From assembly GCA_025210965.1 (NCBI GenBank), contig JAOAQY010000044.1, forward strand, positions 1-32,000: a DNA stretch of 32,000 bases, read 5' to 3'. Origin of the DNA: Tissierellales bacterium (GTDB lineage Bacteria > Bacillota > Clostridia > Tissierellales > JAOAQY01). Below, in pieces: positions 1,911-31,993 of the stretch. Below the pieces are notes generated by a model. That model did no database searches. It was given only the letters and a program-made list of their open reading frames with translations, and was not told where the DNA came from. The translations under genes were made by a program, and so were the position numbers. Positions within the stretch are counted from its first letter, which is position 1. Each line of letters starts with the position of its first letter.

Positions 1911-2242
1911 TCAACCACTCCTATTAATTATATATTTCATAATTTCTAAATAAACCTATTATATTTATACAACAAATCCAAGTATTTTGGTATGTTTTTC
2001 CATGAAAGGTATGTATTTGACCGCGAATAGCAAAATAATTGGAATCACAAAAAAATGTCATTTTTATATCAATGCTATGCCCGGTTCTGTTTATTAACAA
2101 ATCGCAACATTTTCGTATAAATTAATGATTTTTTGTGATAAAATTCTAATTAGTAAATACGATTAAATTTTAATCATACTTACATAATGTTATAGCTTTA
2201 TAGGGGAGTTGAGCTGTAATGTATTGGCAGAGGGGGGTTTTT

Positions 2243-8156: not shown

Positions 8157-8201
8157 GAAATCCACTCCTTCTATATAAATATCTAACCTTTATTTTACCA
8201 C

Positions 8202-8326: not shown

Positions 8327-9925
8327 CTACTTGAATAACTCTAACTTAATCAAACTAATTATTCTATAATATCCTATAGGTGCTAATTCAGTAATTCTAA
8401 CAAATCCATCAAAATCGTCTCTTCCCTTTATCTCATCTAGCGTGAATGCATCTGAATAAAATTTATCGCGAATATATTGCTCGCTTACATCATCAAATAA
8501 AGATCCATCTGCACTACTATAGTTATATTTGATCGAATATTCAAATGAATCCACATCACATAGAAAACTAGGCGGATTTTTTACAACTACTATAGCTTTT
8601 ATATCTTTATATGGATGTACATAGCACATATCGCCAGCTTTCAAATCTGATATGTCCATAGCAAAAATCTTATTAGGGTCCGTAAGATCTTCAATTGTAG
8701 CTCTCCTTTCTATAGAGTCTACAAAATAAACCTTCACATCGCTGTATTTTTCCTTTGGTATAATTATATGATTTAATTCACGATCCTTTATATGAAGAGG
8801 ATTTCGATCTACATATCTAATCACAGCAAGTTTATCACTAGTCTCCGAAACGAATCCTGGGTAAAAGTATCTCGAATCGAACCCCAGTGTCTTGCCATAG
8901 TGAGTAAATCCTTTAGCCTCTTTGCTAAGCTCTTTTACCTCTTTTGGATCTAGCTTAATTAATACCGAAAATTCATTTGCCTGTGACATTGTGTATATAA
9001 GAACAAAATCCCCAATGCCGATAGCTCCATTTTCATCATAAAACTGCTTCATATCTTTATTTTCTTTCAGTGAAAACCTTTCATTTATACCAAATTCTTC
9101 TACATTAGTATCCTTATCTCGCCGACATCCAAATGTCCATACATCGTTATTTTTTGAAATAACCTTGTAAATATCATACATGAACCAATAATTTGGATTA
9201 TAGACTCTATTGTTATCATAAACTTCTAAGAGTTCTTTCTTTTTGCCATTCTCTATTTTAAATTGAGCGAGAACTATGTCTTCTTTGACCAGAAACATCG
9301 GATTATCATCTTCAAAAAATACAGATTCCAAATTATATCTCAAAACCCACTCTTCATAATCTCTATTTTTCATATAATAAGGTTCGTTAACTTTATCGTC
9401 TACTTCTATCCACTCTTCTAAACCTTCAAAGTAAAAGTCTGTAATCTGTACTACTTCATTTTTCAGATGCCCTTCCATATTCGTCCCTAAAGGCTCTGGA
9501 TTAAGAGTTTTATAACCTTTAAAATTATAAACACGATCTATTGGATGCAGCTTGATAATTTCACCTTTTTTATTCAAATCAATTCTCCAAATATAATCTT
9601 CCAAAAACGCAGGCTTGTACTCTTTTGAATTATCTATTATTTTTTCGTAATTCGGGTCCATTTTCAGTCCAAAAATATCTTCTGGTTCAAACATTTCTGT
9701 AAATACGTTAGCTCTATATCCAAAGTAATAATAATCACCATCTATCCTTATAAACTTGTAACCTATACCATCTTCATGATGTTCCTCCGCCTCCAACTTT
9801 GAAAGATAATAATCAAACTTTTCCTCTTTTATGCTAGTTTTTTCTGCCTTTGCACTTACTTGACAAACTTGAATTGTAATTAGTACCAAACATAATAAAT
9901 ACGTAAAAAACATCCTTTTTCTCAT
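8327..9925 (-). CDS. Hypothetical secreted protein (532 aa), no recognisable domain
   Basis: AGGAGG lies 9 nt upstream of the ATG. The N-terminus MRKRMFFTYLLCLVLITIQVCQVSA|KAE looks like a signal peptidase I substrate. The protein is rich in D/E/K/Y/F, and I recognise no catalytic motif. Confidence 0.7.
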   Translation of the reverse strand: MRKRMFFTYLLCLVLITIQVCQVSAKAEKTSIKEEKFDYYLSKLEAEEHHEDGIGYKFIRIDGDYYYFGYRANVFTEMFEPEDIFGLKMDPNYEKIIDNSKEYKPAFLEDYIWRIDLNKKGEIIKLHPIDRVYNFKGYKTLNPEPLGTNMEGHLKNEVVQITDFYFEGLEEWIEVDDKVNEPYYMKNRDYEEWVLRYNLESVFFEDDNPMFLVKEDIVLAQFKIENGKKKELLEVYDNNRVYNPNYWFMYDIYKVISKNNDVWTFGCRRDKDTNVEEFGINERFSLKENKDMKQFYDENGAIGIGDFVLIYTMSQANEFSVLIKLDPKEVKELSKEAKGFTHYGKTLGFDSRYFYPGFVSETSDKLAVIRYVDRNPLHIKDRELNHIIIPKEKYSDVKVYFVDSIERRATIEDLTDPNKIFAMDISDLKAGDMCYVHPYKDIKAIVVVKNPPSFLCDVDSFEYSIKYNYSSADGSLFDDVSEQYIRDKFYSDAFTLDEIKGRDDFDGFVRITELAPIGYYRIISLIKLELFK

Positions 9926-11277: not shown

Positions 11278-14109
11278 TTATTCAATACCATTTACCCAAT
11301 TTAATGTATTTATTTTTCCATCTACTACTCCAAATCTAGCATTTAACTTTTCTCCAACAATGTACCTATACCAATTGTCAGCTACAGCAATTACTTCTTT
11401 CTCTTTTCCATTTGAAGTTTTTACTGTAAGCTTGTAATCATTCTCTTGTTTTACAACATCTAATATTTCTACCAAGTCATCGACATATTCATTCTTCAAA
11501 GGCCTTCCCTCAGCTGGAATAATTTGCGATTTGAATTTTTCTGATTTTTCATTAAACATCTGCATAGAAACCTTCTCTATAGCCTTCAAATTTTTATTTT
11601 CATCTCTAAAGAATTCAAAATAAATATCTTCATATGCTCTCTCATCATTTTTGTAAATATTTCCATAGTCTAATGCATCCCTAAACTTAGACTCTTCAGC
11701 TTCATTTAAAATAAAACTATGTGCTAAATCAAAATCATTAGTGTTTTCACCCATTCCAAATACAAATTTTCCATTTAATCTACCTAAGTAACGATATATG
11801 TAACTCTCATTTATTTTCCCCAAATATTCAACGCCCTTAATTACAAGTTCTTCCGCCCAATCTTTTTTGAATATTTCTCCTTCTATTTTATAAAGCGCAT
11901 CCTTATCAACCTCATTTTTCCCAAAAAGTCTTTTGATATCTGGTTCTTCTTTCAAATGAAATCTAATAGAATCTCCAGACTTTAAATCAAATAATTCCAT
12001 TTGGCTAGAATCAAATTCAATCCCAAATCCCGTGTAATTATTTTCCCCTATAGATGACCATTTTTCGAAACTAAATGGCACATAAGATATCCCATTATTA
12101 GTCACAATTGCACATTCTGCCTTTCCACTATCACCAACTAATACAACTGCATTCTTCACTCCATGTTCATATTTTTCCAAAAATTCATTTATACCTATCC
12201 TTTCTATTCCGTTTACAATTACAAATTCATCATCCAACTCGATAATATCTCCTGATGATGTTTCAAATCTCATCTTCGTTAACTCTCCATCAAATATTGA
12301 TCTTTCACTTGGAACAATTTTTATCATATCCCTTGCAACAAAATCATCAATCCCAACATTAAATAAATAAATTTCACCTTTTCTAAATCTCTCACTTGTC
12401 AAATCAAACTCTTTTAAATTTTCCAATCTATTTTTGTAAAGTTTTTTCAATTCCCCAGGATTTTTAACTATAAAATCGTAATCATAACTATACTCATAGC
12501 CTCTAGTATTTTCATCTACAATTATTTTTCCATCTATATTATTATACAAACCTCTTATATCTAATGATCCTATACCATATCCACTTTTAAAAACTTGACC
12601 TATTATTAATGAGGTTTTTTTATCTTCTGATTCAACATATGGAGAATTTCCTGCAAATAACATGCTTCTTACACTTGTATTAGCGAGGACAGTTCTGATT
12701 CTATTTTCATCATTTAGCTCAATATATATCCTCTCTCCTATAATATTTTGATTCTCTTTTTGGCCAAACCATATACAATCATCAGCCAAATATACCCATG
12801 ATCTTTGATTTTCATCAAATTGATTTGGAGCCATGCTACTCATATTTCCATATCCTAGTTCTAATTGTCCATCGCTTGAATTTAGTACTGTATAATATGC
12901 TGAATTTTTTTCTCTTGATATGATGGGATTAACCTTTGTTACATACCCGCCAGCAACTGAATCTATACTTATAACTGAATGTTTCAATTCTTGATAAAAG
13001 TATCCCTTATCATTTGACCAAAACGTTCTCAACTTGCCATCTTCATCTTTCAAAGTCATTTCAACCAAATCGCCGTATTTATCTAACTCTTCTACATCTA
13101 TTACTAAACCTCTCTCCAAATGATTTACTTTGTTTTCGCCCTCATCATCTAATTTTTCTATTGATACTAATTGATCCAGGCAATTTATTTTCAAGAATAC
13201 TATATCCCCTTCATTCCATGATTCTAAGTATTCATTGCTTTCTTCACTCATATCACTATGAGTTTTAATAATCTCTTCTACTAACTCAGATTTATTTTCT
13301 AATTCATAAGTCACATAAAAATTATTTTTTGACGACCCAACATCTTTTATTTTTGCTTTTACAATGTATTTTGTTGCATATTCAATCGAATCCAAATCAG
13401 TGAAGTAAATAAGACCGATTCCCTTTAAATCATCGGGACTTAAAATATATCTAAAAGAAGTTCTACCATCAGTATTGTATAAATCTGAAAAGTCCTTTTT
13501 CTCGCCTTTATAATTGAGCCATCTATCATAATCAAAAAACAAAAATCTTCCATTTTCTCGAGTAACTATAAATTCTTCGCTCATATAAAGACCTAAATTT
13601 TCTTCAATTTCATCATCATAATTTTTAATATTTGATATACTTTTCTCATCCTGTTCTACCAGTATCACAGCATCTATATTTCCTTCTTTCGATAAGTCTT
13701 CACTTTTTCTATGAAAATAAACTAAATCTCCCTGTTCTATATCTTCTTGAGAAATTCTAACCATTTTATCCTTAGCAAACTTAAAATTCTCTTCCAACAT
13801 ATCCCCTATTTTTAATTTTAAAAACACAGTGCTCTCATCTAAATCATTTGCTTTTATATGACTTTTTCTATCTATTTTATAGTACTCTACAATTTTATGG
13901 CTCTTTTTCGACCATTCCGACACCACTCCGCAAAAAAGCATTTCCGGATCAAATACTTCATCAATATTCTCATACAAACTATCTGCCGAACTCAGCACAT
14001 CACTCTTGCTAGATTTTTCTCCCTCGAGTTGAAACTCACAACTACATGCAATCATAAGCACAAAAAATACCGCCATTACCAAAACAATAAAATTACCTCT
14101 TTTTTTCAT
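11278..14109 (-). CDS. Hypothetical large exported protein, probable lipoprotein (943 aa), no recognisable domain
   Basis: The track start at 14124 is TTG. ATG 14109 follows GGGGAG with a 7-nt spacer. The N-terminus MKKRGNFIVLVMAVFFVLMIAC has a lipobox-like IAC. A G-D/E-x-[IV]-x-[FL] motif recurs along the protein. Confidence 0.7.
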   Translation of the reverse strand: MKKRGNFIVLVMAVFFVLMIACSCEFQLEGEKSSKSDVLSSADSLYENIDEVFDPEMLFCGVVSEWSKKSHKIVEYYKIDRKSHIKANDLDESTVFLKLKIGDMLEENFKFAKDKMVRISQEDIEQGDLVYFHRKSEDLSKEGNIDAVILVEQDEKSISNIKNYDDEIEENLGLYMSEEFIVTRENGRFLFFDYDRWLNYKGEKKDFSDLYNTDGRTSFRYILSPDDLKGIGLIYFTDLDSIEYATKYIVKAKIKDVGSSKNNFYVTYELENKSELVEEIIKTHSDMSEESNEYLESWNEGDIVFLKINCLDQLVSIEKLDDEGENKVNHLERGLVIDVEELDKYGDLVEMTLKDEDGKLRTFWSNDKGYFYQELKHSVISIDSVAGGYVTKVNPIISREKNSAYYTVLNSSDGQLELGYGNMSSMAPNQFDENQRSWVYLADDCIWFGQKENQNIIGERIYIELNDENRIRTVLANTSVRSMLFAGNSPYVESEDKKTSLIIGQVFKSGYGIGSLDIRGLYNNIDGKIIVDENTRGYEYSYDYDFIVKNPGELKKLYKNRLENLKEFDLTSERFRKGEIYLFNVGIDDFVARDMIKIVPSERSIFDGELTKMRFETSSGDIIELDDEFVIVNGIERIGINEFLEKYEHGVKNAVVLVGDSGKAECAIVTNNGISYVPFSFEKWSSIGENNYTGFGIEFDSSQMELFDLKSGDSIRFHLKEEPDIKRLFGKNEVDKDALYKIEGEIFKKDWAEELVIKGVEYLGKINESYIYRYLGRLNGKFVFGMGENTNDFDLAHSFILNEAEESKFRDALDYGNIYKNDERAYEDIYFEFFRDENKNLKAIEKVSMQMFNEKSEKFKSQIIPAEGRPLKNEYVDDLVEILDVVKQENDYKLTVKTSNGKEKEVIAVADNWYRYIVGEKLNARFGVVDGKINTLNWVNGIE

Positions 14110-14252
14110 ATTGTCACTCCCCAATTTAGTCGGTAGTGTAAAATATTACACTACTTTCTGTTTTCACAAATCGCGTATACATAATTTTATTATACACATT
14201 ACAATCGTTCAAGCTGTTACAAAATTATTAAAATTTTGATTAAACACAAAAA

Positions 14253-19435: not shown

Positions 19436-21478
19436 CTAATCAATTTTAAATTTACCTATTGCACCATTCAGTTCATTTGCCAAATCAGATAATGACTGAC
19501 TAGCTGATGAAATTTCATCCATCGATGCAGTTTGTTCCTCTACACATGCTGATGACTGCTGAGTACTAGCTGCATTCTCTTCTGCTATCGCGGATAGATT
19601 CTGTATAGTATCCAATATATCTTCTTTTTGTTTTTCCATTGCCTTTTCAGAAGCATTGAGTTTCTTCATTGCAGTTTCAGATAATTTTATAGCTTCAAAT
19701 ATTTCTCTATACTTTCCTTCAGTATCTCCTACGCTATTAACCTGTTGCTCTATGATTTCAGTTACCCTCTCTATAGTCGAAACCGCCAAACTAGAGCTAT
19801 CTATAAGTTCCTGAACTATTTCATCTATTCTCTTTGTGGATTCAGTTGACTGCTCAGCTAATTTTCTAATTTCTTCAGCAACTACTGCAAATCCCTTTCC
19901 AGCTTCTCCTGCTCGAGCCGCCTCTATAGCAGCGTTTAATGCCAGTAAATTAGTTTGCTCTGCTATTGAAGCTATCATATTACTAGCTTCTCCAATCTTT
20001 CCTGTACTTTCATCTGTTTTTTTGATTACATCAAAAATCTCTTTAGTTGCTAAATTAGTCTCTTTTGCCTTTACACTCAAGTCATCAACTATTTCTAGCC
20101 CCGTTTCAACTAATCCAAATACATTTGTTGAAGCCTGATTTAAATCCCTCATATGTGATTTGTTTTCCTCAATCAAATCTCCAAGTTCTGCTGTTTTCAT
20201 AGCTCCTTCAGTTGTACTCTCGGCTTGATCGGTAGCACCTTTTGCAATTTCTTGTATAGTCGTTGCCACTTCGCTAGATGCAATTGCAACATGCTCAGCA
20301 GTTTCGTTTAAATAACTTGCAGAAGATGTAACTCTATCAGAAGTATCCTTTATTTCTCCTACTAGTTCTCTAAAGCTATCTGTAAGATACTGAAATGACT
20401 TTGACAATGCCCCAATCTCATCATTTCTCTTAACAAAATCACTTGAAATATCCTCTCTAAAATCTCCCTTTGCTAAAAGCTGTGCATAATCAGCAGCTTG
20501 AACTACAGGTTTAATAGTCTTTTTTATACTGATGAATACTATGGTTACTAAAACAAATGCTCCAATTATATAAATACCTATCAAAAGTGCAGTAAATTTT
20601 GATAGCGGTGCAAAGACTTCTGATTTATCAACTAATTGAATTATTCCCCATCCATTTATTTCTATTGGCTCATATGATACCAGATAACCTATGTCATTAT
20701 ATTCTAGTTCAGTAATATCTGACTTTCCAGATAAAACTTCACTTTCTACAGATGAAAATCCCTTGACATCCGATAAATGCTTCTCTTCTTTTATCAATGT
20801 CTCGTCAGCAGCATAAACAATTTGACCTTCATCTGTTATCAAAAAGTTTGTGCCCTTTTCTCCAATTTTATAATTTTCCATAATCTCTGGTACTCTTTTA
20901 AGTGAAATATCTGCCGAATAGAAACCTATGACTTTTCCTTGATCTTCAATAGCTGTAATACCTGATATTACAGTATTTCCTGAGCCAGAATCTTCATACG
21001 GAGGTGTAAATGCAACTCCATCAGTTCCCATTGCTAATTTATACCATGGTCTTTCACTCGTTATATAACTAGGCTTAGAAACATATTTCGTATTGTCTAT
21101 AAAGAAATCAGCATTTTGACTTGCTATAAAAATAAACATTAAATTTTCATATGAATCTGCAACATTAGTTATAGTTCTACTGACTGTATCATACAAATCA
21201 TGGCTTGTGATTTGCTCCCTAGTCTCGACCTCTTTCAAATACCGTTTAACATTTTCATCAGTAGTCCCCTGATTTGCAATCTGCCTAGTTATCTCAAATA
21301 TACTAGATATACTTTTGTCAACTAAATCAGACTTAGTTTCAATATTTTTGACGATATTTGCCCTTAATTCAGTTTTAGTATTATTGTAAACCACTATGCC
21401 AGATATTACGAAAATAAATATTATGGCTACCAATACAATAGATACTAATTTGCTTGCTATACTACGTCTTTTACTCAT
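19436..21478 (-). CDS. Methyl-accepting chemotaxis protein, paralogue A (680 aa; Cache-type sensor, HAMP, MA domain)
   Basis: AGGAGG lies 6 nt upstream of the ATG. It has two TM segments, the sensor motif ERPWYKLA and the MA core [51 protein letters not shown]. It is gap-free co-linear with the 26963..29005 product. Confidence 0.9.
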
Positions 21479-21602
21479 TTTCTCCTCCTTAATTTCTTTC
21501 CTTTATTTTGCCTTTGCTTCTTCTTTACTATAACAGCTAACTTTACAAAATAGAATCCCCAATAATATTTAAGTAACAGCCATCATTAAAAAACACCGTA
21601 TA

Positions 21603-21619
21603 ATTCGTTATACTCGAAT
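21603..21619. promoter_or_regulatory. Inverted repeat ATTCG-N7-CGAAT upstream of MCP paralogue A (conserved with 29121..29137)
   Basis: The plus strand reads ATTCGTTATACTCGAAT, 125 nt upstream of the start codon. The same half-sites and spacing occur upstream of paralogue B. Confidence 0.3.
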
Positions 21620-21629
21620 ATTTTGACAT

Positions 21630-21684
21630 AAAAAAAAGACGTAATAGCTATTTATTTTGTAAACCCCAAAATAACTATTACGTC
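21630..21684 (-). terminator. Rho-independent terminator after the TetR gene
   Basis: In minus-strand sense, GACGUAAUAGUUAUUUUG pairs with CAAAAUAAAUAGCUAUUACGUC (an extended stem). UUUUUUU follows. Confidence 0.75.
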
Positions 21685-21715
21685 AAAAATATTCTATTTC
21701 AATACATTATAAAAA

Positions 21716-22381
21716 CTACAATGATATATTTAAAGGATCATCTGAATAATAAAGAACCATATCTTTAATATAGTTTACAACTTCATTAACTTCTCTCTCT
21801 ATATCATCTGTTCCCTCATCTAATATAGTCTTGAATTTTCCTTTGAAAAAATACACTGCCATCTTATTTAATTTTAGTGCTTTTTCTATGGAAATAACTC
21901 CTTCTTTCACACAATTTCTGCACATGTACTGATCCCTTTTAAGAAAACTACCCTCTTTAAGCATAATCTGCAAATATTCGCTAACGATATTTATACTATT
22001 TGGAAACATATCATAGTATTCTTGCAACGCTCTTGGAAGAATCTTGCTCTGTGGTCCAAAAAATATGCAGTCAAAAGCCTTTGGATACCTGAAAGCCTGC
22101 CTTGAATAACACTCCCATATACCTATGTGCTTCTCCCATATATTCTTCCATTGCGCTTCTTTATCGTGAAGCTGAGTCACATATCCCTCTAGATATACCA
22201 ATTGAGCGTATACCAATAGTTCATTGAGATTGTCAAAATGTCTATACAATGTAGTCGTGCTACAATTCATCTCTTTAGCTAATCGCCTAATTGATATGCT
22301 TTCGACACCTTCTTTTTTTACAATCTCTTGCGCTTTTATAATATATTCTCTTCTACTAAAATTTCTTCCTTGAATCACCAT
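21716..22381 (-). CDS. TetR/AcrR-family transcriptional regulator
   Basis: The track start at 22387 is GTG. ATG 22381 follows GGAGGT with an 8-nt spacer. The N-terminal HTH is ISIRRLAKEMNCSTTTLYRHFDNLNELL, followed by an all-helical C-terminal domain. Confidence 0.85.
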   Translation of the reverse strand: MVIQGRNFSRREYIIKAQEIVKKEGVESISIRRLAKEMNCSTTTLYRHFDNLNELLVYAQLVYLEGYVTQLHDKEAQWKNIWEKHIGIWECYSRQAFRYPKAFDCIFFGPQSKILPRALQEYYDMFPNSINIVSEYLQIMLKEGSFLKRDQYMCRNCVKEGVISIEKALKLNKMAVYFFKGKFKTILDEGTDDIEREVNEVVNYIKDMVLYYSDDPLNISL

Positions 22382-22401
22382 ATACACGTACCTCCGAAGA
22401 A

Positions 22402-22430
22402 ATTATAGCATTTACTGTCTATTTTTACAA
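22402..22430 (-). promoter_or_regulatory. SigmaA-type promoter (extended -10) for the TetR gene
   Basis: In minus-strand sense, TTGTAA (22430..22425) is followed by a 17-nt spacer ending in TGC, then TATAAT (22407..22402). It sits immediately after the ykvI-like stop codon. Confidence 0.55.
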
Positions 22431-22436
22431 CAAAAT

Positions 22437-23525
22437 TTAAGCTGCTTCTTCTTCAGATGCTGTTTTAGTAACTATTTTCTTGATGTCCTTAACTATCATA
22501 ATCACTAAAAGAGCCGCTCCGACATATCCATTCAATACGTAAACTACATTGACCAGTTTTGAAAATGGCAATTTAACTCCGACAATTAGTCCTACAACAG
22601 CTAATACTATCGTAAGTACCTTGAAATTCTTACTCTTGTCTTCTGTAAATCTTGAAGATGCTGACCAAAGTAGTGGCACTGCAGTTGTAAATATTCCACA
22701 ATACACTATTATAGAAAATACTGTTGCTAGAAATGGACTTATATTACCTGACATTATTAACATAGGTATTTCACTTTTACCAACTAATTCTATAACCGAA
22801 AGAAGTCCCATAGCAACTACCCCTACTGCTATAGAAAAAAGTGTCGCACCTATAATTGCTCCCATTCCAGCTTGTTTTTTGCTGTCCGCAGTCGCTCCCA
22901 TAGATGCCAAAAAGCTAGCTAACCACAACATACAAAATCCAACATAAGATGTCGCTGCCATAAACCAATTAGACGATGCCTGCATTATATTCATATCCGG
23001 AATACTTCTACTAGCCTCTCCTATATGACCGAAGTTCATAAACAATGTTATTGCTCCTACTGCTATAGACATAAATACTATAATCGGTCCTATTTTCCCT
23101 ATTATATCCACTATTTTATTCAATCCCATGAGCACGACTAACGTAACTATTATAGTCATTATAGTTCCTCCAACTACTACTGGTTGACCATAATGCTGAT
23201 TAAGTGTTGCTCCTGCTCCTGCAACCATTACTATGAATGATAGGTATATGAAAACTATCGAAAAATAATCATAAAAATTTCCCAATATATTGCCGCAATA
23301 GTATTTATATATATCACTACCTCTTTCAAATTGTTCTCTCTGCCCCACTGTTATAAAACTATATCCAACATACATCAATAGCAAAAGTGTAACTAAAACC
23401 CCAGCTATTCCCCAATAACCATATGATGTAAAGTATTGAAGTACCTCTTGTCCTGTTGCAAAACCTGATCCAATCAAATAAGCTATAAACGCACCTGCAA
23501 ATGTAAAAACCTTTTTATAATCCAT
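22437..23525 (-). CDS. YkvI-family polytopic membrane protein (putative amino-acid-type transporter, distant APC superfamily)
   Basis: 362 aa with about 11 hydrophobic helices. The N-terminal FAGAFIAYLIGSGFATGQEVLQYF motif is characteristic of the YkvI (COG3949) family. AGGAGG lies 6-7 nt upstream of the ATG. Confidence 0.8.
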   Translation of the reverse strand: MDYKKVFTFAGAFIAYLIGSGFATGQEVLQYFTSYGYWGIAGVLVTLLLLMYVGYSFITVGQREQFERGSDIYKYYCGNILGNFYDYFSIVFIYLSFIVMVAGAGATLNQHYGQPVVVGGTIMTIIVTLVVLMGLNKIVDIIGKIGPIIVFMSIAVGAITLFMNFGHIGEASRSIPDMNIMQASSNWFMAATSYVGFCMLWLASFLASMGATADSKKQAGMGAIIGATLFSIAVGVVAMGLLSVIELVGKSEIPMLIMSGNISPFLATVFSIIVYCGIFTTAVPLLWSASSRFTEDKSKNFKVLTIVLAVVGLIVGVKLPFSKLVNVVYVLNGYVGAALLVIMIVKDIKKIVTKTASEEEAA

Positions 23526-23565
23526 ATAACCCTCCTAAATAGCTATTATATGTGCATTTTTCCTT

Positions 23566-23601
23566 AAAAAATATTCAGCCCGCAAAAAACAGGCTGAATA
23601 T
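23566..23601 (-). terminator. Rho-independent terminator between grdX and the YkvI-family gene
   Basis: In minus-strand sense, AUAUUCAGCC uguuuuuugcg GGCUGAAUAU (10-bp stem) is followed by UUUUU. Confidence 0.7.
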
Positions 23602-23605
23602 ATGA

Positions 23606-24001
23606 TTATTTCAAATAATTTCTGATTGCATTGTCAATCAAAGATTGATCAATGGTTCTATGGTCGTCAGCTATGCTCTCTTCATAAATCGGCACAGGAT
23701 GATTCTTAATAAATTTATGGTAAGTTTCTATCGCGCTGTCTAATAGCATCACGCCGTTTACATCAGTCCCTCCCGAGCTACCTTTCTCGAGCATCACACT
23801 TCTATATGGAGTTTGGTTGGGTTTTAAACTACCTGCTTGTGGATGAGTCAAAAGTACATATCCATCCGAAACCATATATTTTGCCGTTGTGAGCACACCG
23901 ATATAATTTTCCGCTACTTTAACATCCACGACTTTGGCGTATTTCTCACATACTTTTTTATTATTCGTAACTATAACCGCTTTACTCTCTTTATAAAACA
24001 C
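23606..24001 (-). CDS. grdX: GrdX-family protein (small accessory protein of glycine/sarcosine/betaine reductase loci)
   Basis: 131 aa with a GTG start and a GGTGG SD. The VTNNKKV motif and the LLTHPQAGSLKPNQTPYRSV block match the conserved GrdX core (LLTHPLSGSVKPNETPYKS) as I recall it. Confidence 0.75.
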   Translation of the reverse strand: MFYKESKAVIVTNNKKVCEKYAKVVDVKVAENYIGVLTTAKYMVSDGYVLLTHPQAGSLKPNQTPYRSVMLEKGSSGGTDVNGVMLLDSAIETYHKFIKNHPVPIYEESIADDHRTIDQSLIDNAIRNYLK

Positions 24002-24022
24002 AGGACCACCACCAATACATTA

Positions 24023-25330
24023 TTATTCGAATACTGTTTGTTCTTCTATTTCAGTTTCTAAAGATTTCAATGCTCTTCTGACAAGTTCTTCTCTAACCTT
24101 TTTGCTATCTTTTTCTCCAAGTAATGGATTTCCTAATGGATAAGGAATACCAACAGCTGGAACTATTCTATTTGCTCCAATTGTAAGCGAAATAGGAACT
24201 ACTGTAGCTATATGTGCTACTGGAATACCTACTCTCTCAATTTCTTTTACCATAGTTGCACCGCAACGCGTACAAGTGCCTCAAGTGGATGTTAATAGGA
24301 CTGCATCAACCTTATCCTCTAGTAAACCCTTAGTGAATTCCTCACCAAAACGCTTTGAATTTCCAGTAGATGTCCCCGTACCCGTAGTACTGATGAAATA
24401 ATTAGCTAATTCTCCAATTTCACCTGCCACTTCCATCTCTCTAAGCACATCAAGTGGTATTACTAAATTTGGATTTTCAAGCACATAGGCTCTATCATAT
24501 CCACCGTGAACTGTCATAAAATCGTCTTTGCTCATAGCACTCATTCCCTCAATGCTATATTTTCCCCACTTAGTTGCACTAGATGACTCTATATGATCTG
24601 GATTTCCATGAGGTACTATTCCTCCCGATGTAACTACAGCTATCTTTAATTTACTCACATCTTTTACAGCTGGATTTGGAGCAACCTTGTCAAATGTAGG
24701 CATAGAATACTCTGTTTCAACATCTTCACCATTGCATTTTTTAACAAGTAAATCGACCGCCCTTTTTGAGCCTCTAATTTCATTGAAGTAATTTACTCTA
24801 ATTCCTCTTTCAATATATCCTTCTATTGCTGGAGATAATATCTCCTCTTCTCCAACCATTTTCTTAACTAAATTTGCTATTTTTGGCATTGTCTTTTTCA
24901 TACCTGCTGCTGAAATAGGTGTTTCAATTATATGCAAATCCTTTTTAAACATATCTACACCAGGATTTTCAGGATACATTCCAGTAACTACTTTTATTCC
25001 AAGCTTTTCCTCTACTGCCTTTGCAATAGTACCACAAGCTACACCGTATCTACCGGCATTAAATGCTGGTCCAGCAACAAAAACAGCTGGATTTTCGCCT
25101 TTAACCATTTCTAAAATAGTTTCTTCAGCTTGCTCTAGGTTTTCACCAAAATAATTATCACCACAAACAATTGTAGCTACTATCTCAAAGTCATCTCCAA
25201 GAAATGATGCAAGCGATGCTCCTGGGCCTACTGCACCTTTTTTAAGACTTGGTGTAATATCAGCTTTTTCTTCTCCGCCGATGCCTCCAAAAAATTGATT
25301 CAAATAATGAACTACTTTTATTTTCCCCAT
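24023..25330 (-). CDS. grdB: Selenoprotein B of a glycine/sarcosine/betaine-type reductase (GrdB/GrdF/GrdH family), 435 aa with Sec at residue 350
   Basis: Track ORFs 24281..25330 and 24023..24253 are in the same frame. An in-frame TGA (24283..24281) and 9 open codons join them. The junction reads LLTST-U-GTCTRCGATMVKEIERVGIP, the canonical UxxCxxC redox motif of GrdB. The N-terminus VVHYLNQFFGGIGGEEKA is typical of GrdB. GGAGGG lies 5-6 nt upstream of the ATG. Confidence 0.9.
24255..24283 (-). other. UGA selenocysteine codon plus SECIS-like hairpin
   Basis: In minus-strand sense, UGA is followed by a 13-nt spacer. Then comes GUUGC-GGU-GCAAC (24267..24255), a perfect 5-bp stem with a GGU apical loop. 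This fits the spacing and loop type of bacterial SECIS elements. Confidence 0.6.
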
Positions 25331-25340
25331 GATTTCCCTC

Positions 25341-26627
25341 CTAATATCCTCTAGCCGCTAATTTATTGTAACCATTTGCAATAGTAGATGCTATTATGAT
25401 TTGAAGTTCTGCATCAAAACTTCCATCAGCATTCATACAGCCATCACTACCACCAATTTGCGACTCGATATAGTCCGTCATTCCAATAACTTTGTCCATA
25501 GCTGGAAAATGTAGCATAGCATTACCTTGCCCACAAGAAACTAAAGTATCAGCCTCTTCAACTACATCGGCTAAAGACTGTGATTTACCATCCTTACCCG
25601 GGAACTCATCTGTGATAAGTACAACCTTTGCTCCTGCTTCAGTTGCCTTTTTACAATTCATCATGAGATCAGTATCTGGATTTCCATATCCTTCCTCAGT
25701 TATAATTACTCCATCTAACCCCATAAATTCAACTAATTTTCCAACCATATCCGAGCATCTCTCTTTATCTGCAAGAAATACATTCTCATTAGTCAGTATA
25801 ACGCCCATGAAATTCAAGTCTTTACCGTGTCTTTCATACAAATCATGAATAACAGGGTTATTTAAGTGGTGGAACGTAGTAACCTTGTCACAAGGAGCCA
25901 CACAATTACCACTAACTATAGCTCCATCCATTATCTCAGTTGGATACATAAATGTAGGAATAAATTGCTTAGCATCCACTCCATAATAATAAGTATCATG
26001 TAATAAACCTTGAGATTGAAGCATGTGAATATATCCTATTTTAGGCAATTTAGGGTATTGTGCTATTTGTTCCTGAAGTGGTTTTGTTTCATAAGTAACT
26101 ATCTCATTAGGCTCTACTTCTCTTGCAGCTTCACCAACATATGTCGCCACCTTCAAACCTACTAAACGAGCAGATTCTTCATATACATGTGTCTCTAATC
26201 CCTCTACTGGTTCTACTACTACACATAAATTAAGAGTCTTAGAAAACGGACAATAATCAGCTGCTGGACCGCTCATATCTATTACGCCTTCTTGAAAACC
26301 TACAATCTTACCGCAAGTAACTACATTCATACCAACAAGCGCATGAGTTCTTCCACTACCAACTTGTTTTACCTTATTGATAACACCTGGGAATATTTTT
26401 CCCTTCCCTGAAACCTTAACTCTTGGCTCTATAACATCTTTTACCGGTGTAATTCTAACTGACTCTCCCGGTTTAGCAATATCAATTTTCACTGATTTGA
26501 TTTTGTCGTCCTCAAGAACCAAATCCTCAACTGCCTTTTTGCTTACATAAAGAGTACTACCATCAACTCTAGTCTTCTCTCCAAAGACCAAGTCTTTCAC
26601 ATAAATTTTCCCAATTTCTAATTTCAC
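25341..26627 (-). CDS. grdE: GrdE-family proprotein (alpha/beta subunits of the substrate-specific protein B; pyruvoyl-forming)
   Basis: 428 aa with a GTG start and AAGGAGG 8 nt upstream. The N-terminus MKLEIGKIYVKDLVFGEKT and the blocks GFQEGVIDMSGP and LLHDTYYYGVDAK resemble GrdE. SGN-C falls at residues 239-242, which is the GrdE cleavage position. The stop lies 10 nt before the grdB-like start. Confidence 0.9.
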   Translation of the reverse strand: MKLEIGKIYVKDLVFGEKTRVDGSTLYVSKKAVEDLVLEDDKIKSVKIDIAKPGESVRITPVKDVIEPRVKVSGKGKIFPGVINKVKQVGSGRTHALVGMNVVTCGKIVGFQEGVIDMSGPAADYCPFSKTLNLCVVVEPVEGLETHVYEESARLVGLKVATYVGEAAREVEPNEIVTYETKPLQEQIAQYPKLPKIGYIHMLQSQGLLHDTYYYGVDAKQFIPTFMYPTEIMDGAIVSGNCVAPCDKVTTFHHLNNPVIHDLYERHGKDLNFMGVILTNENVFLADKERCSDMVGKLVEFMGLDGVIITEEGYGNPDTDLMMNCKKATEAGAKVVLITDEFPGKDGKSQSLADVVEEADTLVSCGQGNAMLHFPAMDKVIGMTDYIESQIGGSDGCMNADGSFDAELQIIIASTIANGYNKLAARGY

Positions 26628-26642
26628 AAATAAACCTCCTTA

Positions 26643-26658
26643 TTGTTATCGCGATACT
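26643..26658. repeat. Leader repeat copy C (TTGTTATCGCGATACT; core palindrome TATCGCGATA at 26647..26656)
   Basis: It is an exact 16-nt duplicate of 26689..26704. In mRNA sense it ends 3 nt before the AAGGAGG SD of the grdE-like gene. Confidence 0.8.
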
Positions 26659-26666
26659 TAAAAGAT

Positions 26667-26692
26667 AAAAAAAACAAATCCATGGCATTTGT
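26667..26692 (-). terminator. Weak hairpin plus U8 tract inside the grdE-like leader (possible attenuator)
   Basis: In minus-strand sense, ACAAAU-GCCAUGG-AUUUGU is followed by UUUUUUUU. The stem is only 6-7 bp and AU-rich, so the call is tentative. Its 5' arm overlaps repeat copy B. Confidence 0.3.
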
Positions 26693-26704
26693 TATCGCGA
26701 TACT
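26689..26704. repeat. Leader repeat copy B (TTGTTATCGCGATACT; core palindrome at 26693..26702)
   Basis: It is an exact 16-nt duplicate of copy C, 46 nt away. Confidence 0.8.
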
Positions 26705-26770
26705 CGCAATGTAAAAAAATAAATTTATTTGATAATTAACGCAATATAGAAGCACAGCAAGCGGCGCTAT

Positions 26771-26782
26771 GTTATCGCGGTA
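26771..26782. repeat. Leader repeat copy A (GTTATCGCGGTA, 11/12 match to copies B and C)
   Basis: It lies 80 nt from copy B, at about +8..+19 relative to the transcription start predicted from the promoter at 26796..26824. Confidence 0.6.
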
Positions 26783-26795
26783 ATTATTTGTTATA

Positions 26796-26824
26796 ATATT
26801 ATCATAGTTTTTTAGCCTCTGCAA
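26796..26824 (-). promoter_or_regulatory. SigmaA-type promoter (extended -10) for the grdE-grdB-grdX unit
   Basis: In minus-strand sense, TTGCAG (26824..26819) is followed by a 17-nt spacer ending in TGA, then TAATAT (26801..26796). Confidence 0.5.
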
Positions 26825-26880
26825 TAACTTTTTTAAATAGTCTGAAAAAAACAAAAAAATTCTATTTAGTTTATCTATAA

Positions 26881-26927
26881 AAACAAAACCATACTAAATC
26901 CTCAAAAATACGAAATAGCATGGTTTT
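26881..26927 (-). terminator. Rho-independent terminator after MCP paralogue B
   Basis: In minus-strand sense, AAAACCAUGCUA pairs with UAGUAUGGUUUU (12 bp including one wobble pair, ~19-nt loop). GUUUUUAU follows. Confidence 0.6.
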
Positions 26928-26962
26928 ATATATATGATTTATTCTTTCAATTTAACTATATC

Positions 26963-29005
26963 TTACTTAACTTTAAACTTTCCTATAGCTTGATTTAATG
27001 AACTAGCTAAATCAGCCAATGATTGACTAGCTGACGAAATTTCATCCATAGATGCTGTCTGTTCTTCAACACTAGCCGCTGATTCTTCAGTACTAGCTGC
27101 ATTTTCTTCTGCTATTGCAGATAATGTCTGAATAGTATCCAGTATATCAGTTTTCTTTTCCTCCATGGCCTCTCCCGACAGGTTTAAACGCTCTATGGCC
27201 TTCTCTGACATTTGTATAGCTGCATATATTTCTTTATACTTATCTTCAGTATCTCCAACACTATTGACTTGCTGTTCTATGATTTTAGTTACTCTTTCAA
27301 TAGTTGTAACTGCAAGTTTTGAGCTATCTACAAGTTCTTGTACTATATCATCAATTCTCTTTGTAGACTCCGTAGATTGCTCTGCTAATTTCCTAATCTC
27401 CTCAGCAACTACAGCAAAACCTTTTCCGGCTTCTCCAGCTCTAGCTGCCTCGATTGCAGCATTCAATGCAAGTAAATTTGTCTGCTCTGCTATCGAAGCT
27501 ATGACATTACTAGCCTCACCAATTTTTCCTGTATTTTCATCTGTTTTTTTAATCACATTGAAAATTTCTTTTGTTGCAGTGTCAGTTTCTTTTGCTTTAT
27601 CACTCAAATCATCAACTATAACCAATCCTGCTTTGACTAGTTCAAATACATTTTCAGATGCGTTATTTAAAGCATCCATATAATCTCTGTCTTTTTCTAT
27701 CAAATCTCCTAATTCTGCTGCTTGCATTGCCCCTTCAGTAGTGCTCTCGGCCTGATCAGTCGCTCCTCTTGCTATTTCCTGTATCGTACTTGCGACCTCT
27801 CCTGAAGCTATAGATACATGTCCTGCAGTTTCATTTAAATAATTTGCTGAAGACGAAACTTGATTTGAAGTAGTTTGAATTTCTCCAACTAAATTTCTAA
27901 AATTTTCTGTAAGATATTGGAATGATTCTGCCAGTAATCCAATTTCATTGTTCTTTTTCAAAAATTCAGCATCCACATTTTGGCTAAAATCACCACTAGC
28001 CAAAACTTGACCATATTTTGAAGCAACTATTACCGGTTTTATGATACGTCTTACGCTTACAAAAACTACAAAACCCAGAACTAAAATTCCTATGACATAT
28101 ATTATTCCCAATATTGAAGTAAACTCGTTCAATGAATTAAAAGCTTCTGACTTGTTAACTAATTGTATTATCCCCCATCCATTTATCATTATTGGTTCAT
28201 AAGCAACTAAATAAGTCTCTCCATTATAATCCAATTCTTCAATATCTGCTTTTCCAGCTAGCACTTCTTCTTGAACATTTTCAAATCCTTCAATTTCAGA
28301 CAATTTTATAGATTTTTTCATCAAATTAGAATCTTGAGCATATACTATCTGCCCGACCTTATTTATAAGAAAATTTGTTCCTTTTTCACCAATTTTGTAA
28401 TGATTCATTATTTCAGGTATTTTTTCTAAAGAAATATCTGCAGAATAAAAACCTATTATTTCACCATTTTCTCGAATAGCTGTTATACCTGAAATTATTG
28501 TTTCACCACTACCTGCATCTACATATGGAGTTGTAAATTCAACTTTATTAGAATTTACTGCCAAATTATACCAAGGTCTAGTCCTACAATTATAATCTTT
28601 TTTAGATATTGTTCCAGTACTCTCCAAATAAAAATTAGCTCTTTCATTAGCTATCCATGAAAAATATAAATTCTCGTATGAACTTCCTACATTTGATAAT
28701 GTATCGAGCACATCACCATATAATTCATGTGTTTCGATTTGATCATATGTGTCAACTTCTCTTAAATATCTCTGAACATTTTTGTCAGTTACTCCTTGTT
28801 TTACTACTTGTTCTGTTATCTCAAATATATTAGATACACTTTTATTTACTAAATCAGATTTTGTTTCAATATTATTCATTATATTTAAAGTTAATTCTGA
28901 TTTTGTTTTGCTAAATACTGCGACTCCTGATGCAACAAATATAACTAATATTGAGCTAAGTACAATAGCCATCAATCTTGTTGCAATACTACCTCTTTTT
29001 TTCAT
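26963..29005 (-). CDS. Methyl-accepting chemotaxis protein, paralogue B (680 aa; Cache-type sensor, HAMP, MA domain)
   Basis: GGGGGAG SD. Its architecture and length match paralogue A. The 50-aa run [51 protein letters not shown] is identical in both. Confidence 0.9.
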
Positions 29006-29232: not shown

Positions 29233-30387
29233 CTACAAAAACTCAAGAAACGCTTCAAGTCTAGTCTCTATTTGTCCCTTATCAGATTGTGAATAGTCTG
29301 TAAGTACTTTCAAATATGGTATATCCAGTTCATCTGTAACCATTTGCTTTACATAATGAGACTCTACATTGAAAGTATGACATGCCTGAAGAACTATCTC
29401 TATAACTCCATCTACTTGATATTCTTTCACCATTGATCTCAAATCATCAAATCGCTTTTTGTTAGGAGACATAACCGAACAGCTTATATTCAAATACTTC
29501 TCTGCTATAGCACTTATAGGATCTATATCTTCTCTAATCATCTGAGCCTTTTCTTTTGGACCGCTACAATTTTCATAGCATACTATATCCGCTCCTAAAT
29601 CCTCTATAGTCTTCAGTACTTTTTCTCGAACACCACCTGCTGGGCATCCAGTTATAAGTATTCTTGGTCTGTCCGAAGTCTTGCCTTTAAAATCAGTTTC
29701 ATATCTATCTTTAATCTCATCAATATACGATCTAAGTTTACTTAATTTCTCTTCTCTATCGAACGTAAAACTAAGCCCTTCAGCAATAGCATTTATATCG
29801 TGACCAGATACTGGTGATGGATTCAATTTACCAAGTTCATACATCTCTTTGATTAAAGCTCTTTCTCTATTTCCATCAACTATAGCTTTTTTTAGATCAT
29901 CTTCTGTAACCTCTATGCCAAATCTCTCTTCCAATACCTCTTTAAATCTCACAACTTCCGTTCTCCAAAAGCTTAAATCATGCTCTAAATCATATCCTGG
30001 TGGTAATTGCATAACGTGCACAGGCTTTATATCGCCTAGCAATTCATACATCTTCTTTTTACCATCACAAGTGGTTTCACCAACTATTATATCTGAAAAA
30101 TAAAAATATGGACATTTGTCACTTATAGCATACCCATAACTTGATTTTATTAGAGGGCATAAATTGCTCGGAAGATCCTTCTCGGCTATCGATATAGTTT
30201 CATCACTCACTCCACATAAACCAACTGGAACAGCTCCTGCTGCATAAATGATTTCCGTAGGTGTATAAGTACAAAATATACCTGCAACTCTAGTTCCATT
30301 CTCTTTTATTTCCTTTATCTTCAAAAAACCCTGCTTTCGAGCCTCAGTAAAACTCTCAAATTCAATAGGTAAATTAGCTTTCTCCAT
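29233..30387 (-). CDS. 2-hydroxyacyl-CoA dehydratase D-component family protein (HgdB/BcrC-like; possibly a double-cubane-cluster-type reductase)
   Basis: 384 aa. The N-terminal block GTRVAGIFCTYTPTEIIYAAGAVPVGLCG is typical of the HGD-D/BcrC/BadD family. There are ten Cys (39, 58, 77, 92, 107, 248, 270, 274, 303, 336). It has its own terminator and upstream spacer. Confidence 0.75.
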   Translation of the reverse strand: MEKANLPIEFESFTEARKQGFLKIKEIKENGTRVAGIFCTYTPTEIIYAAGAVPVGLCGVSDETISIAEKDLPSNLCPLIKSSYGYAISDKCPYFYFSDIIVGETTCDGKKKMYELLGDIKPVHVMQLPPGYDLEHDLSFWRTEVVRFKEVLEERFGIEVTEDDLKKAIVDGNRERALIKEMYELGKLNPSPVSGHDINAIAEGLSFTFDREEKLSKLRSYIDEIKDRYETDFKGKTSDRPRILITGCPAGGVREKVLKTIEDLGADIVCYENCSGPKEKAQMIREDIDPISAIAEKYLNISCSVMSPNKKRFDDLRSMVKEYQVDGVIEIVLQACHTFNVESHYVKQMVTDELDIPYLKVLTDYSQSDKGQIETRLEAFLEFL

Positions 30388-30532: not shown

Positions 30533-31993
30533 TCAACCCGCACATTCGCTGGCAGGTTTCATCCAATCTAACTCACCATTTTTCAAGAAACAAACATGAT
30601 CGCATGTACTTGCAACTAGCTCTGGATCGTGGGTCACTATAAATATGCTCTTACCCTTTCTCGCTAATTGTTTCATTAGTTTTGAAACTTCAAACATGTG
30701 ATGATAATCTAAACCGCTAGTTGGTTCGTCAAACACCAAAAAATCTTTTTCAGATGCCATAGCGCATGCTATGGCTACTCGTTGTTTTTGTCCTCCTGAA
30801 AGCGACATTGGATGACATTTGTAATATTCTCTGAGATTTAAATTTTCCAAAAGTCTGCATACATAATTATCTTGAATATCTTTGCTCTCCTCTAATTTAA
30901 GCTGACCCTTCAAGCTCAAATTAATCTCTTCTTCAACGCTCTCTGTAAACAATTGGTGATTGACATCTTGCATTACCATAAAAAATTTCTTCGCTCTTTT
31001 CTTACCACAATATTTACCAGAGCTACTCTCCATATTTCCACTAGGTTTTTTCACAAGCCCGCACAGATGATTTACAAACGTCGTCTTTCCTGCACCATTA
31101 TCACCTAATATAGCCATTATACTTCCCTTTGGAAACTTCATATTTTCTATATTTAGCACACATCTTTTACCGTATCTCATATAAAAATTATTTAAAACTA
31201 TAGCTTCCTTTCCCTCAAATCTTTCTCCGTACGACAATGCATTGCCGTTTGACTGTCTAAGCCCCATATCATGCAATTCTTCTGACCCAATTGATTGAAA
31301 TTCATCAACACTTATATCCTTCTTTATAAATCCATCTGCCATATAAATGACTCTATCTGCCACATCCATCAAATAGTGAAGCCTATGCTCCGCTATCACA
31401 ATTGTTTTCCCCATAGATTTCCACTTACTTATTATATTTTTCATCTCTCCTATAGAACTTATATCTAAATTTGAAGATGGCTCATCTAAAACTAGTATTT
31501 CTGGTAACATCGCACCTACTGAACCACACGCAATCCTCTGTTTTTCTCCTCCTGACAACTCAAAGAGACTTCTATTTAATAGATGCTCCAAATTAAGTGG
31601 CTTTATTATACTATTGATTCTCTCACAAATTTGATCTGCAGGCATCCCCCTATTTTCACAGCCAAAAGCAAGTTCATCAGCAGTATCTACATTGAAAAAT
31701 TGAGACCTTGGATTTTGAAATACTGAGCCGACACTTTTAGAAATTATATCCAAATCAGTCTCTCTAACATCCATACCAGAAACTTTTATTTTACCGTTCA
31801 AGTCTCCATCATAAAAATGTGGTACTAAACCATTTATAAGTCTTGTTATTGTTGTTTTTCCACAACCTGATTTACCACAAAGTAAAACAACTTGCCCTTT
31901 TGGAATTTTTAGATTTATATCGCTCAAATTTTTGTGTTTTTCAGTATTATCCGACCCCTTGTACCTAAATTCTACATTCTCAAAAGATATCAT
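30533..31993 (-). CDS. Duplicated ABC transporter ATP-binding protein (two fused NBDs; ECF/CbiO-like)
   Basis: 486 aa. NBD1 has GKSGCGKTT, LSGGEKQRIACG and LVLDEPSSNLD. NBD2 has GDNGAGKTT, LSGGQKQRVAIA and LVFDEPTSGLD. The ATG at 31993 is 7 nt from the window end, so the SD is not visible. Confidence 0.85.
   Translation of the reverse strand: MISFENVEFRYKGSDNTEKHKNLSDINLKIPKGQVVLLCGKSGCGKTTITRLINGLVPHFYDGDLNGKIKVSGMDVRETDLDIISKSVGSVFQNPRSQFFNVDTADELAFGCENRGMPADQICERINSIIKPLNLEHLLNRSLFELSGGEKQRIACGSVGAMLPEILVLDEPSSNLDISSIGEMKNIISKWKSMGKTIVIAEHRLHYLMDVADRVIYMADGFIKKDISVDEFQSIGSEELHDMGLRQSNGNALSYGERFEGKEAIVLNNFYMRYGKRCVLNIENMKFPKGSIMAILGDNGAGKTTFVNHLCGLVKKPSGNMESSSGKYCGKKRAKKFFMVMQDVNHQLFTESVEEEINLSLKGQLKLEESKDIQDNYVCRLLENLNLREYYKCHPMSLSGGQKQRVAIACAMASEKDFLVFDEPTSGLDYHHMFEVSKLMKQLARKGKSIFIVTHDPELVASTCDHVCFLKNGELDWMKPASECAG

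Follow-up and report, generated by a model that had tools for sequence, protein, structure and literature searches.

We analyzed a window of 32,000 nucleotides (nt) from a Tissierellales bacterium, that is, the whole stretch from position 1 to 32,000 of contig JAOAQY010000044.1, for a compact cassette of five genes related to component B (protein B) of the glycine, sarcosine and betaine reductases. A check of the open reading frames (ORFs) showed that five minus-strand genes lie within positions 21479..26962 and are bracketed by two paralogous genes coding for methyl-accepting chemotaxis proteins (MCPs) of 680 amino acids (aa). Families were tested against the NCBIfam curated models with their cut-offs, Pfam and Rfam. 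An earlier note made from the letters of this DNA had claimed five co-directional genes at this place; the reading frames and the family matches confirm all five, which are, from upstream to downstream:

25341..26627, minus strand: grdG-type gene, a GrdE-family proprotein (alpha/beta subunits), 428 aa, GTG start; matches NF040793 and PF09338
24023..25330, minus strand: grdF-type gene, a GrdB-family selenoprotein B, 435 aa in read-through translation, with selenocysteine as residue 350
23606..24001, minus strand: grdX (GrdX family), 131 aa; matches NF038093 with 125.3 bits (cut-off 40)
22437..23525, minus strand: gene for a YkvI-family membrane protein, 362 aa
21716..22387, minus strand: gene for a TetR-family regulator, 223 aa from GTG; matches PF00440 and PF08279

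The first two genes are separated by just 10 nt, the same gap that had been claimed, without a grdA between them. The N-terminal helix-turn-helix domain of the TetR protein passes the PF00440 cut-off marginally (25.2 bits, cut-off 24). Because of its distance from a GGAGG ribosome-binding site, the ATG at 22381 (221 aa) is a likelier start for tetR than the GTG at 22387, and it is also the call in the contig record (L001).

Selenocysteine and pyruvoyl signals

The enzyme genes carry three signals that bear on their catalytic chemistry:

25902..25907, minus strand: codons for Asn241-Cys242 of the grdG-type gene (SGN/CVAP), the predicted self-cleavage site
24281..24283, minus strand: in-frame TGA of the grdF-type gene, in the motif TST-U-GTCTRCG
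24243..24280, minus strand: selenocysteine insertion sequence (SECIS), directly 3' of the TGA

The TGA is the sole interruption of the grdF-type frame, and the product carries a U-x-x-C-x-x-C motif in addition to the SECIS. The latter matches Rfam family RF01990 (SECIS_4) with 52 bits against a gathering score of 38 (E = 1.2e-9), while its hairpin alone is thermodynamically not unusual (z = +0.8). Rfam detected no riboswitch or leader in the region before grdG; the SECIS was its sole match. The Asn-Cys motif is found in the GrdG of Peptoclostridium acidaminophilum too; we take its role to be that of the site at which GrdE of Clostridium sticklandii is processed, at Cys242.

The enzyme genes are of the sarcosine type

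Both subunits score above the cut-offs of the curated sarcosine-reductase families. The GrdG-type protein obtained 855.1 bits with sarcosine_GrdG (NF040793, cut-off 780), and the GrdF-type protein passed sarcosine_GrdF (NF040794) narrowly, with 807.7 bits at a cut-off of 800. The latter also exceeded the cut-off of the glycine GrdB model TIGR01917, with a score below its own GrdF score (658.5 bits, cut-off 602.2), and stayed under that of the betaine GrdH model (548.6 bits, cut-off 775). The discrimination of these models was checked on one 18-kb supercluster from a Leptotrichia metagenome-assembled genome (MAG; L073, 1047..17860), which holds all three types as the modules trxA-grdE-grdA-grdB-grdC-grdD-agcS (glycine), grdG-grdF-ykvI-grdX (sarcosine type) and BCCT-grdI-grdH (betaine type). 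The scores of its three copies were:

canonical glycine copy (grdA between its genes): GrdG model 655.6, GrdF 735.8, glycine GrdB 802.8, GrdH 570 bits
YkvI-linked copy: GrdG model 873, GrdF 823, glycine GrdB 630, GrdH 583 bits
BCCT-linked, betaine-type copy: GrdG model 333.6, GrdF 571, glycine GrdB 500, GrdH 785 bits

The reference GrdG and GrdF of P. acidaminophilum reached 881.2 and 854 bits on their respective models. P. acidaminophilum DSM 3953 is the organism of the sarcosine reductase studies, and the window proteins share 78% (GrdG) and 68% (GrdF) identity with its annotated grdG and grdF products. The identity of the window GrdG falls to 57% with the canonical GrdE and to 41% with the BCCT-linked GrdI, and an identity ranking of 84 GrdE-like sequences left a clean gap between the GrdG clade and the others. 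Close relatives already carry the NCBI name 'sarcosine reductase complex component B'.

Sequence comparison thus places the pair in the curated sarcosine-reductase families and in the P. acidaminophilum clade, and sarcosine would be its substrate. The earlier note had left the specificity open between glycine, sarcosine and other compounds, a view that this placement of both subunits displaces. Its surmise that the pair stands apart from the housekeeping glycine type holds, given that the sarcosine models outscore the glycine model and given the distance from the canonical GrdE. Physiology lends support to the assignment of the clade: Clostridium sp. FS41, with its split gene layout, forms sarcosine (PMC4417704), and growth of strain DCMF on glycine betaine strongly induces GrdG and GrdF (PMC9768040).

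Separation from the partner genes is the usual layout

Using GrdA, GrdC, GrdD and TrxA from the Leptotrichia locus as queries, each verified by NCBIfam, tblastn of the 32-kb window returned noise only (E ≤ 10). The claim that grdA, grdC, grdD and trx are missing from the window is borne out in this way, TrxA having been the query for trx, and the family matches together with this absence support the description of a substrate-specific protein-B module apart from these genes. Nor did the ~6 kb past the upstream end of the window (L001) contain any grd gene; at the opposite end, the sequence stops at the edge of the window. The window is also without any tRNA gene.

We then scanned species-representative genomes and recovered 80 loci with a GrdG of 74-86% identity, spanning Lachnospiraceae, Peptacetobacter, Sedimentibacter, Brachyspira, Oscillospiraceae, Leptotrichia and others. 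The nearest relatives came from Lachnospiraceae MAGs and the cockroach isolate Ohessyouella blattaphilus. For the neighborhood counts we used the 60 loci with at least 2.5 kb of sequence on either side. First, grdX lies near the cassette in 53 of these. Second, grdA occurs within 10 kb in only 6 of the 60 and grdC or grdD in 4. Separation from grdA and grdCD is therefore the commonest arrangement of this clade.

Two described organisms display the same split. The locus of P. acidaminophilum DSM 3953 lies on a megaplasmid (NZ_CP007453, 511.5-515.9 kb); as in the window, grdX, grdG, grdF and a ykvI-like gene are co-directional, and grdA, grdCD and trx are absent, there within 12 kb. Its GrdX is 38% identical to that of the window, and the gene after its grdF, annotated as a 'hypothetical protein', proved to be a YkvI homolog with 57% identity. 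It differs in gene order (sensor, sigma-54 regulator, grdX, grdG, grdF, 'hypothetical protein'), with grdX coming first, and in featuring a sensor and a sigma-54 activator with a -24/-12 promoter instead of TetR and a palindromic operator. Likewise, Clostridium sp. FS41, which makes sarcosine from N-methylhydantoin, is described as having sarcosine-specific B genes and a 'hypothetical protein usually associated' in one cluster and the substrate-unspecific A and C genes in another (PMC4417704). Because the 60-locus survey, P. acidaminophilum and FS41 all show the split layout, the cassette is not the unusual orphan that the earlier note had made of it. Rather, the enzyme adds one more copy to a known selenoenzyme module that is annotated automatically, and its layout is the usual one.

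The canonical glycine operon, trxB-trxA-grdX-grdE-grdA-grdB-grdC-grdD (C. sticklandii, Brachyspira pilosicoli (PMC2897892) and the Leptotrichia MAG L073), shares with the window the protein families, the selenocysteine chemistry and GrdX. Unlike the window, it has grdA between grdE and grdB, grdCD and trx adjacent, and an AgcS transporter, along with the more distant GrdE.

Two further observations concern the related loci. Some single MAGs contain two or three separate sarcosine-type grdG-grdF copies (L004 and L008; L040, L050 and L057), and such copies may differ in substrate. In several TetR-type loci (L010, L011 and L014), a gene for an AIR-synthase-related protein, probably the selenophosphate synthase SelD, stands beside the cassette, ~2-4 kb downstream of grdF.

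A predicted transporter of the YkvI family

Relatives of the fourth protein are named 'YkvI family membrane protein' in JGI and UniRef records. The protein itself gave no Pfam or NCBIfam family even at E ≤ 1, and a sequence search of the PDB found no relative. An AlphaFold2 model built from 38 homologs had a predicted local distance difference test (pLDDT) score of 88.6 and a predicted template-modeling (pTM) score of 0.85. In a Foldseek search of the PDB, this model retrieved Nramp/NRMT, CHT1, MhsT, AgcS, AdiC/ApcT and BetP at a probability of 1.0 and TM scores of 0.6-0.68. The protein is hence predicted to be a secondary transporter of the LeuT/APC fold.

The earlier note had called for a survey of the linkage of these genes; it recurs widely, with ykvI by the cassette in 37 of the 60 loci and a tetR ortholog in 28. 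An SNF-family symporter is present in 13 of the 60 and takes the place of ykvI in 12, both transporters occurring together at a single locus. The Leptotrichia sets show a comparable pairing: the glycine set comes with AgcS, the sarcosine-type set with YkvI and the betaine-type set with BCCT. Looking up the genes from the side of the transporter, we found that all five close YkvI homologs (5/5) adjoin grdX, and that four of the five come directly after the B-subunit gene pair. By guilt-by-association, the YkvI subfamily most likely imports the substrate of the reductase; we infer both the direction of transport and the substrate from this context. The suggestion that the linkage would give the YkvI family a testable role is borne out for this subfamily.

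In Dethiosulfovibrio sp. F2B (L084, 7613..9083), grdX overlaps the start of a ykvI whose product is 62% identical to that of the window. Protein B genes are absent from the surrounding 8 kb, which shows that grdX and ykvI can occur as a pair in the absence of the reductase genes. More distant members of the family appear in other settings. On an Enterococcus faecalis plasmid (L092, 5947..8457), a homolog with 33% identity is followed by an aminotransferase-family gene, and the context of a distant homolog on a Pseudomonas plasmid was uninformative. Literature searches on YkvI and on a named sarcosine transporter in grd clusters gave nothing relevant, and the only functional paper found concerns the YkvI-family protein PH0137 of Pyrococcus horikoshii, for which D-amino-acid uptake was inferred (PMC13628549). 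PH0137 is co-regulated with an amino-acid-metabolizing enzyme, and its transport role, like that of the window YkvI, is an inferred one (PMC13628549); unlike the window protein, PH0137 is archaeal, distant and paired with a racemase and a feast/famine regulator. By analogy with PH0137-PH0138, the Enterococcus YkvI-aminotransferase pair suggests a general amino-acid role for the family.

The cassette also displays signs of mosaicism. Its gene order is G-F-X-Y-T, as against the usual X-T-G-F-Y. In a comparison of 21716..24001 with L003-L005 and L021, the window GrdG and TetR were 86% and 60% identical to their closest counterparts, from Lachnospiraceae MAGs, whereas YkvI was 57-66% identical to the Sedimentibacter/Peptoclostridium type against 48-51% to the YkvI of the same Lachnospiraceae MAGs. 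These patterns show that the cassette has undergone rearrangement, possibly with an exchange of its transporter gene.

Transcription signals and a candidate TetR operator

The signals detected in and around the cassette are as follows:

26883..26929, minus strand: terminator hairpin of the upstream MCP gene (-18.4 kcal/mol, z = -6.32)
26770..26782, minus strand: first operator-like palindrome, TACCGCGATAACA, 155 nt upstream of the grdG start codon
26690..26702, minus strand: second operator-like palindrome, TATCGCGATAACA, 75 nt upstream of the grdG start codon
26644..26656, minus strand: third operator-like palindrome, TATCGCGATAACA, 29 nt upstream of the grdG start codon, abutting the ribosome-binding site
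23561..23601, minus strand: intrinsic terminator after grdX, a 13-bp stem followed by a T run (-18.9 kcal/mol, z = -5.64)
22402..22430, minus strand: extended -10 site before tetR, TTGTAA-17-TG-TATAAT (10/12 matches, TG present), a consensus match only

The upstream MCP gene is closed by a strong terminator, and the cassette must therefore start its own transcript. The earlier note had assigned grdE-grdB-grdX a promoter of their own; the separate start is implied by this terminator, while the promoter itself did not materialize: in the 335 nt that precede grdG, no site matched the sigma-70 consensus at 9/12 positions or more. In the same consensus scan, promoter-like sites across the region were no more numerous than in shuffles (21 vs 24.4). 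The terminator after grdX, placed by the note at 23566..23601, stands on its fold energy and stem, and the extended -10 promoter of tetR stands as a consensus match. For ykvI, neither a convincing promoter of its own nor an operator was detected in the window.

The three palindromes upstream of grdG follow the pattern TA(T/C)CGCGATAACA, and three matches to it were reached by none of 100 shuffles. The tetR orthologs of the related loci are 40-60% identical to the window gene product, and the core TATCGCGATA, with one mismatch allowed, was present close to the cassette in 29 of 33 loci with a tetR ortholog versus 6 of 48 without. In most cases it precedes grdG by no more than 200 nt, and two copies are frequent. 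A set of 46 sites from the related loci yielded the consensus GTTATCGCGATAAC, a perfect 14-bp palindrome. The TetR protein would bind this palindrome and respond to an inducer connected with the pathway. At loci with a sigma-54 activator, P. acidaminophilum among them, the element TGGCAY-N5-TTGCW (-24/-12) is instead found 60-110 nt upstream of grdX or grdG, and at a few loci a GntR gene takes the place of the other regulators. The module thus has at least two interchangeable regulatory solutions, TetR with the palindrome or a sigma-54 activator.

Proposed function and alternatives

We consider it likely that the cassette specifies the substrate-specific B component of a reductase for sarcosine (N-methylglycine), along with an accessory protein, an importer and a regulator. 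The proposed steps are textbook chemistry of this enzyme family. The GrdG proprotein would cleave itself at Asn241-Cys242 to give the pyruvoyl subunit, whose pyruvoyl group would bind the substrate amine. Selenocysteine 350 of GrdF would attack the alpha-carbon, so that methylamine is released and a carboxymethyl-selenoether is left. The carboxymethyl group would be handed to selenoprotein A (GrdA) and on to protein C (GrdCD), yielding acetyl phosphate and hence ATP, with thioredoxin re-reducing the system. Genes elsewhere in the genome would supply GrdA, GrdCD, thioredoxin and the selenocysteine machinery, which other reductases would use as well. The LeuT/APC-fold transporter of the YkvI family most likely brings in the substrate. 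TetR most likely represses the grdG-grdF-grdX transcript via the three palindromes upstream of grdG and would dissociate from them in the presence of the substrate or of a metabolite related to it.

Several points weigh against this interpretation. First, grdA, grdCD and trx were found neither in the 32 kb nor, beyond one end, in a further ~6 kb. Second, GrdF clears its curated cut-off by only 8 bits and also clears that of the glycine GrdB model (658 vs 602). Third, to our knowledge no Lachnospiraceae enzyme of the GrdG/GrdF clade has been assayed, and we know of no residues established as setting the specificity. Fourth, co-regulation of ykvI in the source genome is uncertain because the gene sits behind a strong terminator, with no operator or clear promoter; further, as the earlier note had held, the literature gives no measured substrate for any YkvI-family member. 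Fifth, the two or three same-type copies per genome hint at more than one substrate in the clade. Finally, riboflavin induces the B-subunit-like genes finHI of Clostridium scindens, whose products were proposed to cleave a flavin C-N bond and so take a two-carbon unit off the nitrogen (PMC13492142).

The last two points lead to an alternative that we regard as unlikely, namely that in Lachnospiraceae the TetR/YkvI-type cassette serves a substrate other than sarcosine, be it a different N-substituted glycine or a related C-N compound, for example a gut-derived one, with YkvI as its importer and TetR as its sensor. The narrow pass of GrdF is consistent with this, and a fluoroacetate-reducing homolog, represented by the FarE model (NF053623), shows that the family has further substrates; the window protein, however, scored 172 bits on that model, far below its cut-off of 675. 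As described, finHI resemble the cassette in being B-subunit homologs located apart from the A/C genes with permease genes nearby, and differ from it in standing amid flavin-metabolism genes with a flavin side chain as the proposed substrate (PMC13492142). None of the fin genes (a RibF-like kinase, an aldolase, and alcohol or aldehyde dehydrogenases) is present in the window, and the fin neighborhood is rare, at ~12 of 792 Lachnospiraceae genomes (PMC13492142), while the cassette is widespread. Moreover, the window GrdG matches the P. acidaminophilum protein as closely as other members of the clade do.

A second, glycine-specific protein B, that is, a glycine reductase isoenzyme with YkvI importing glycine, strikes us as improbable. 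In its favor, the B subunit exceeds the glycine GrdB cut-off, the Asn-Cys cleavage site suits primary and secondary amines alike, and specificity in this lineage rests on sequence comparison. Yet for both subunits the sarcosine models give the better scores, a relationship that is reversed in the true canonical GrdB of Leptotrichia, and the window GrdG is far closer to the grdG product of P. acidaminophilum than to canonical GrdE. Leptotrichia, in addition, has this type beside a complete glycine set with an AgcS of its own. Highly improbable is a third reading, in which the cassette no longer functions and survives as a remnant lacking its A and C components. The absence of grdA, grdCD and trx from the sequence at hand would fit it, but each of the five frames is intact, and the cassette retains a conserved SECIS, selenocysteine motif and cleavage site. 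A split from the A and C genes is the norm in the clade and is seen in sarcosine-reducing organisms.

The enzyme itself brings nothing new; two other components lend the cassette modest value. The YkvI subfamily is tied to sarcosine-type reductase genes and swappable with an SNF-family symporter in the same position, which makes sarcosine uptake a concrete hypothesis for it. The TetR protein with its conserved 14-bp palindrome is a candidate sensor for a methylamine-producing electron-acceptor pathway of gut and other anaerobic bacteria. The quantified transporter linkage, the assignment of the transporter fold and the candidate operator are new here, and each is of moderate interest.

Other genes of the window

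The window contains three paralogous dCache_1 MCP genes:

26963..29005, minus strand: MCP gene upstream of the cassette
19436..21478, minus strand: MCP gene downstream of the cassette
2219..4303, plus strand: third MCP gene

The pair flanking the cassette is 67% identical in protein and 70% in DNA, and the third copy is 41% identical. We rejected the flanking genes as members of the cassette, for an MCP lies near it in only one other locus (L065); the flanking is probably a local feature of the source genome.

Further upstream, 29233..30387 (minus strand) codes for an anaerobic reductase of the double-cubane-cluster type (NF040772, 526 bits) and 30533..31993 (minus strand) for the ATPase of an ECF transporter. 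According to a preprint, double-cubane proteins co-occur genome-wide with GrdX-containing genomes. Two ORFs of 532 and 948 aa (8327..9925 and 11278..14124, both minus strand) were without a match at E = 0.05 in Pfam and E = 1 in NCBIfam. At 6159..8165 (minus strand) lies a gene for a 668-aa methionyl-tRNA-synthetase-like protein that scored 248 bits against the curated MetG cut-off of 587 and may be a paralog with a different role. It is adjoined at 4409..5947 (minus strand) by a gene for a 512-aa protein with MutS domains III and V only.

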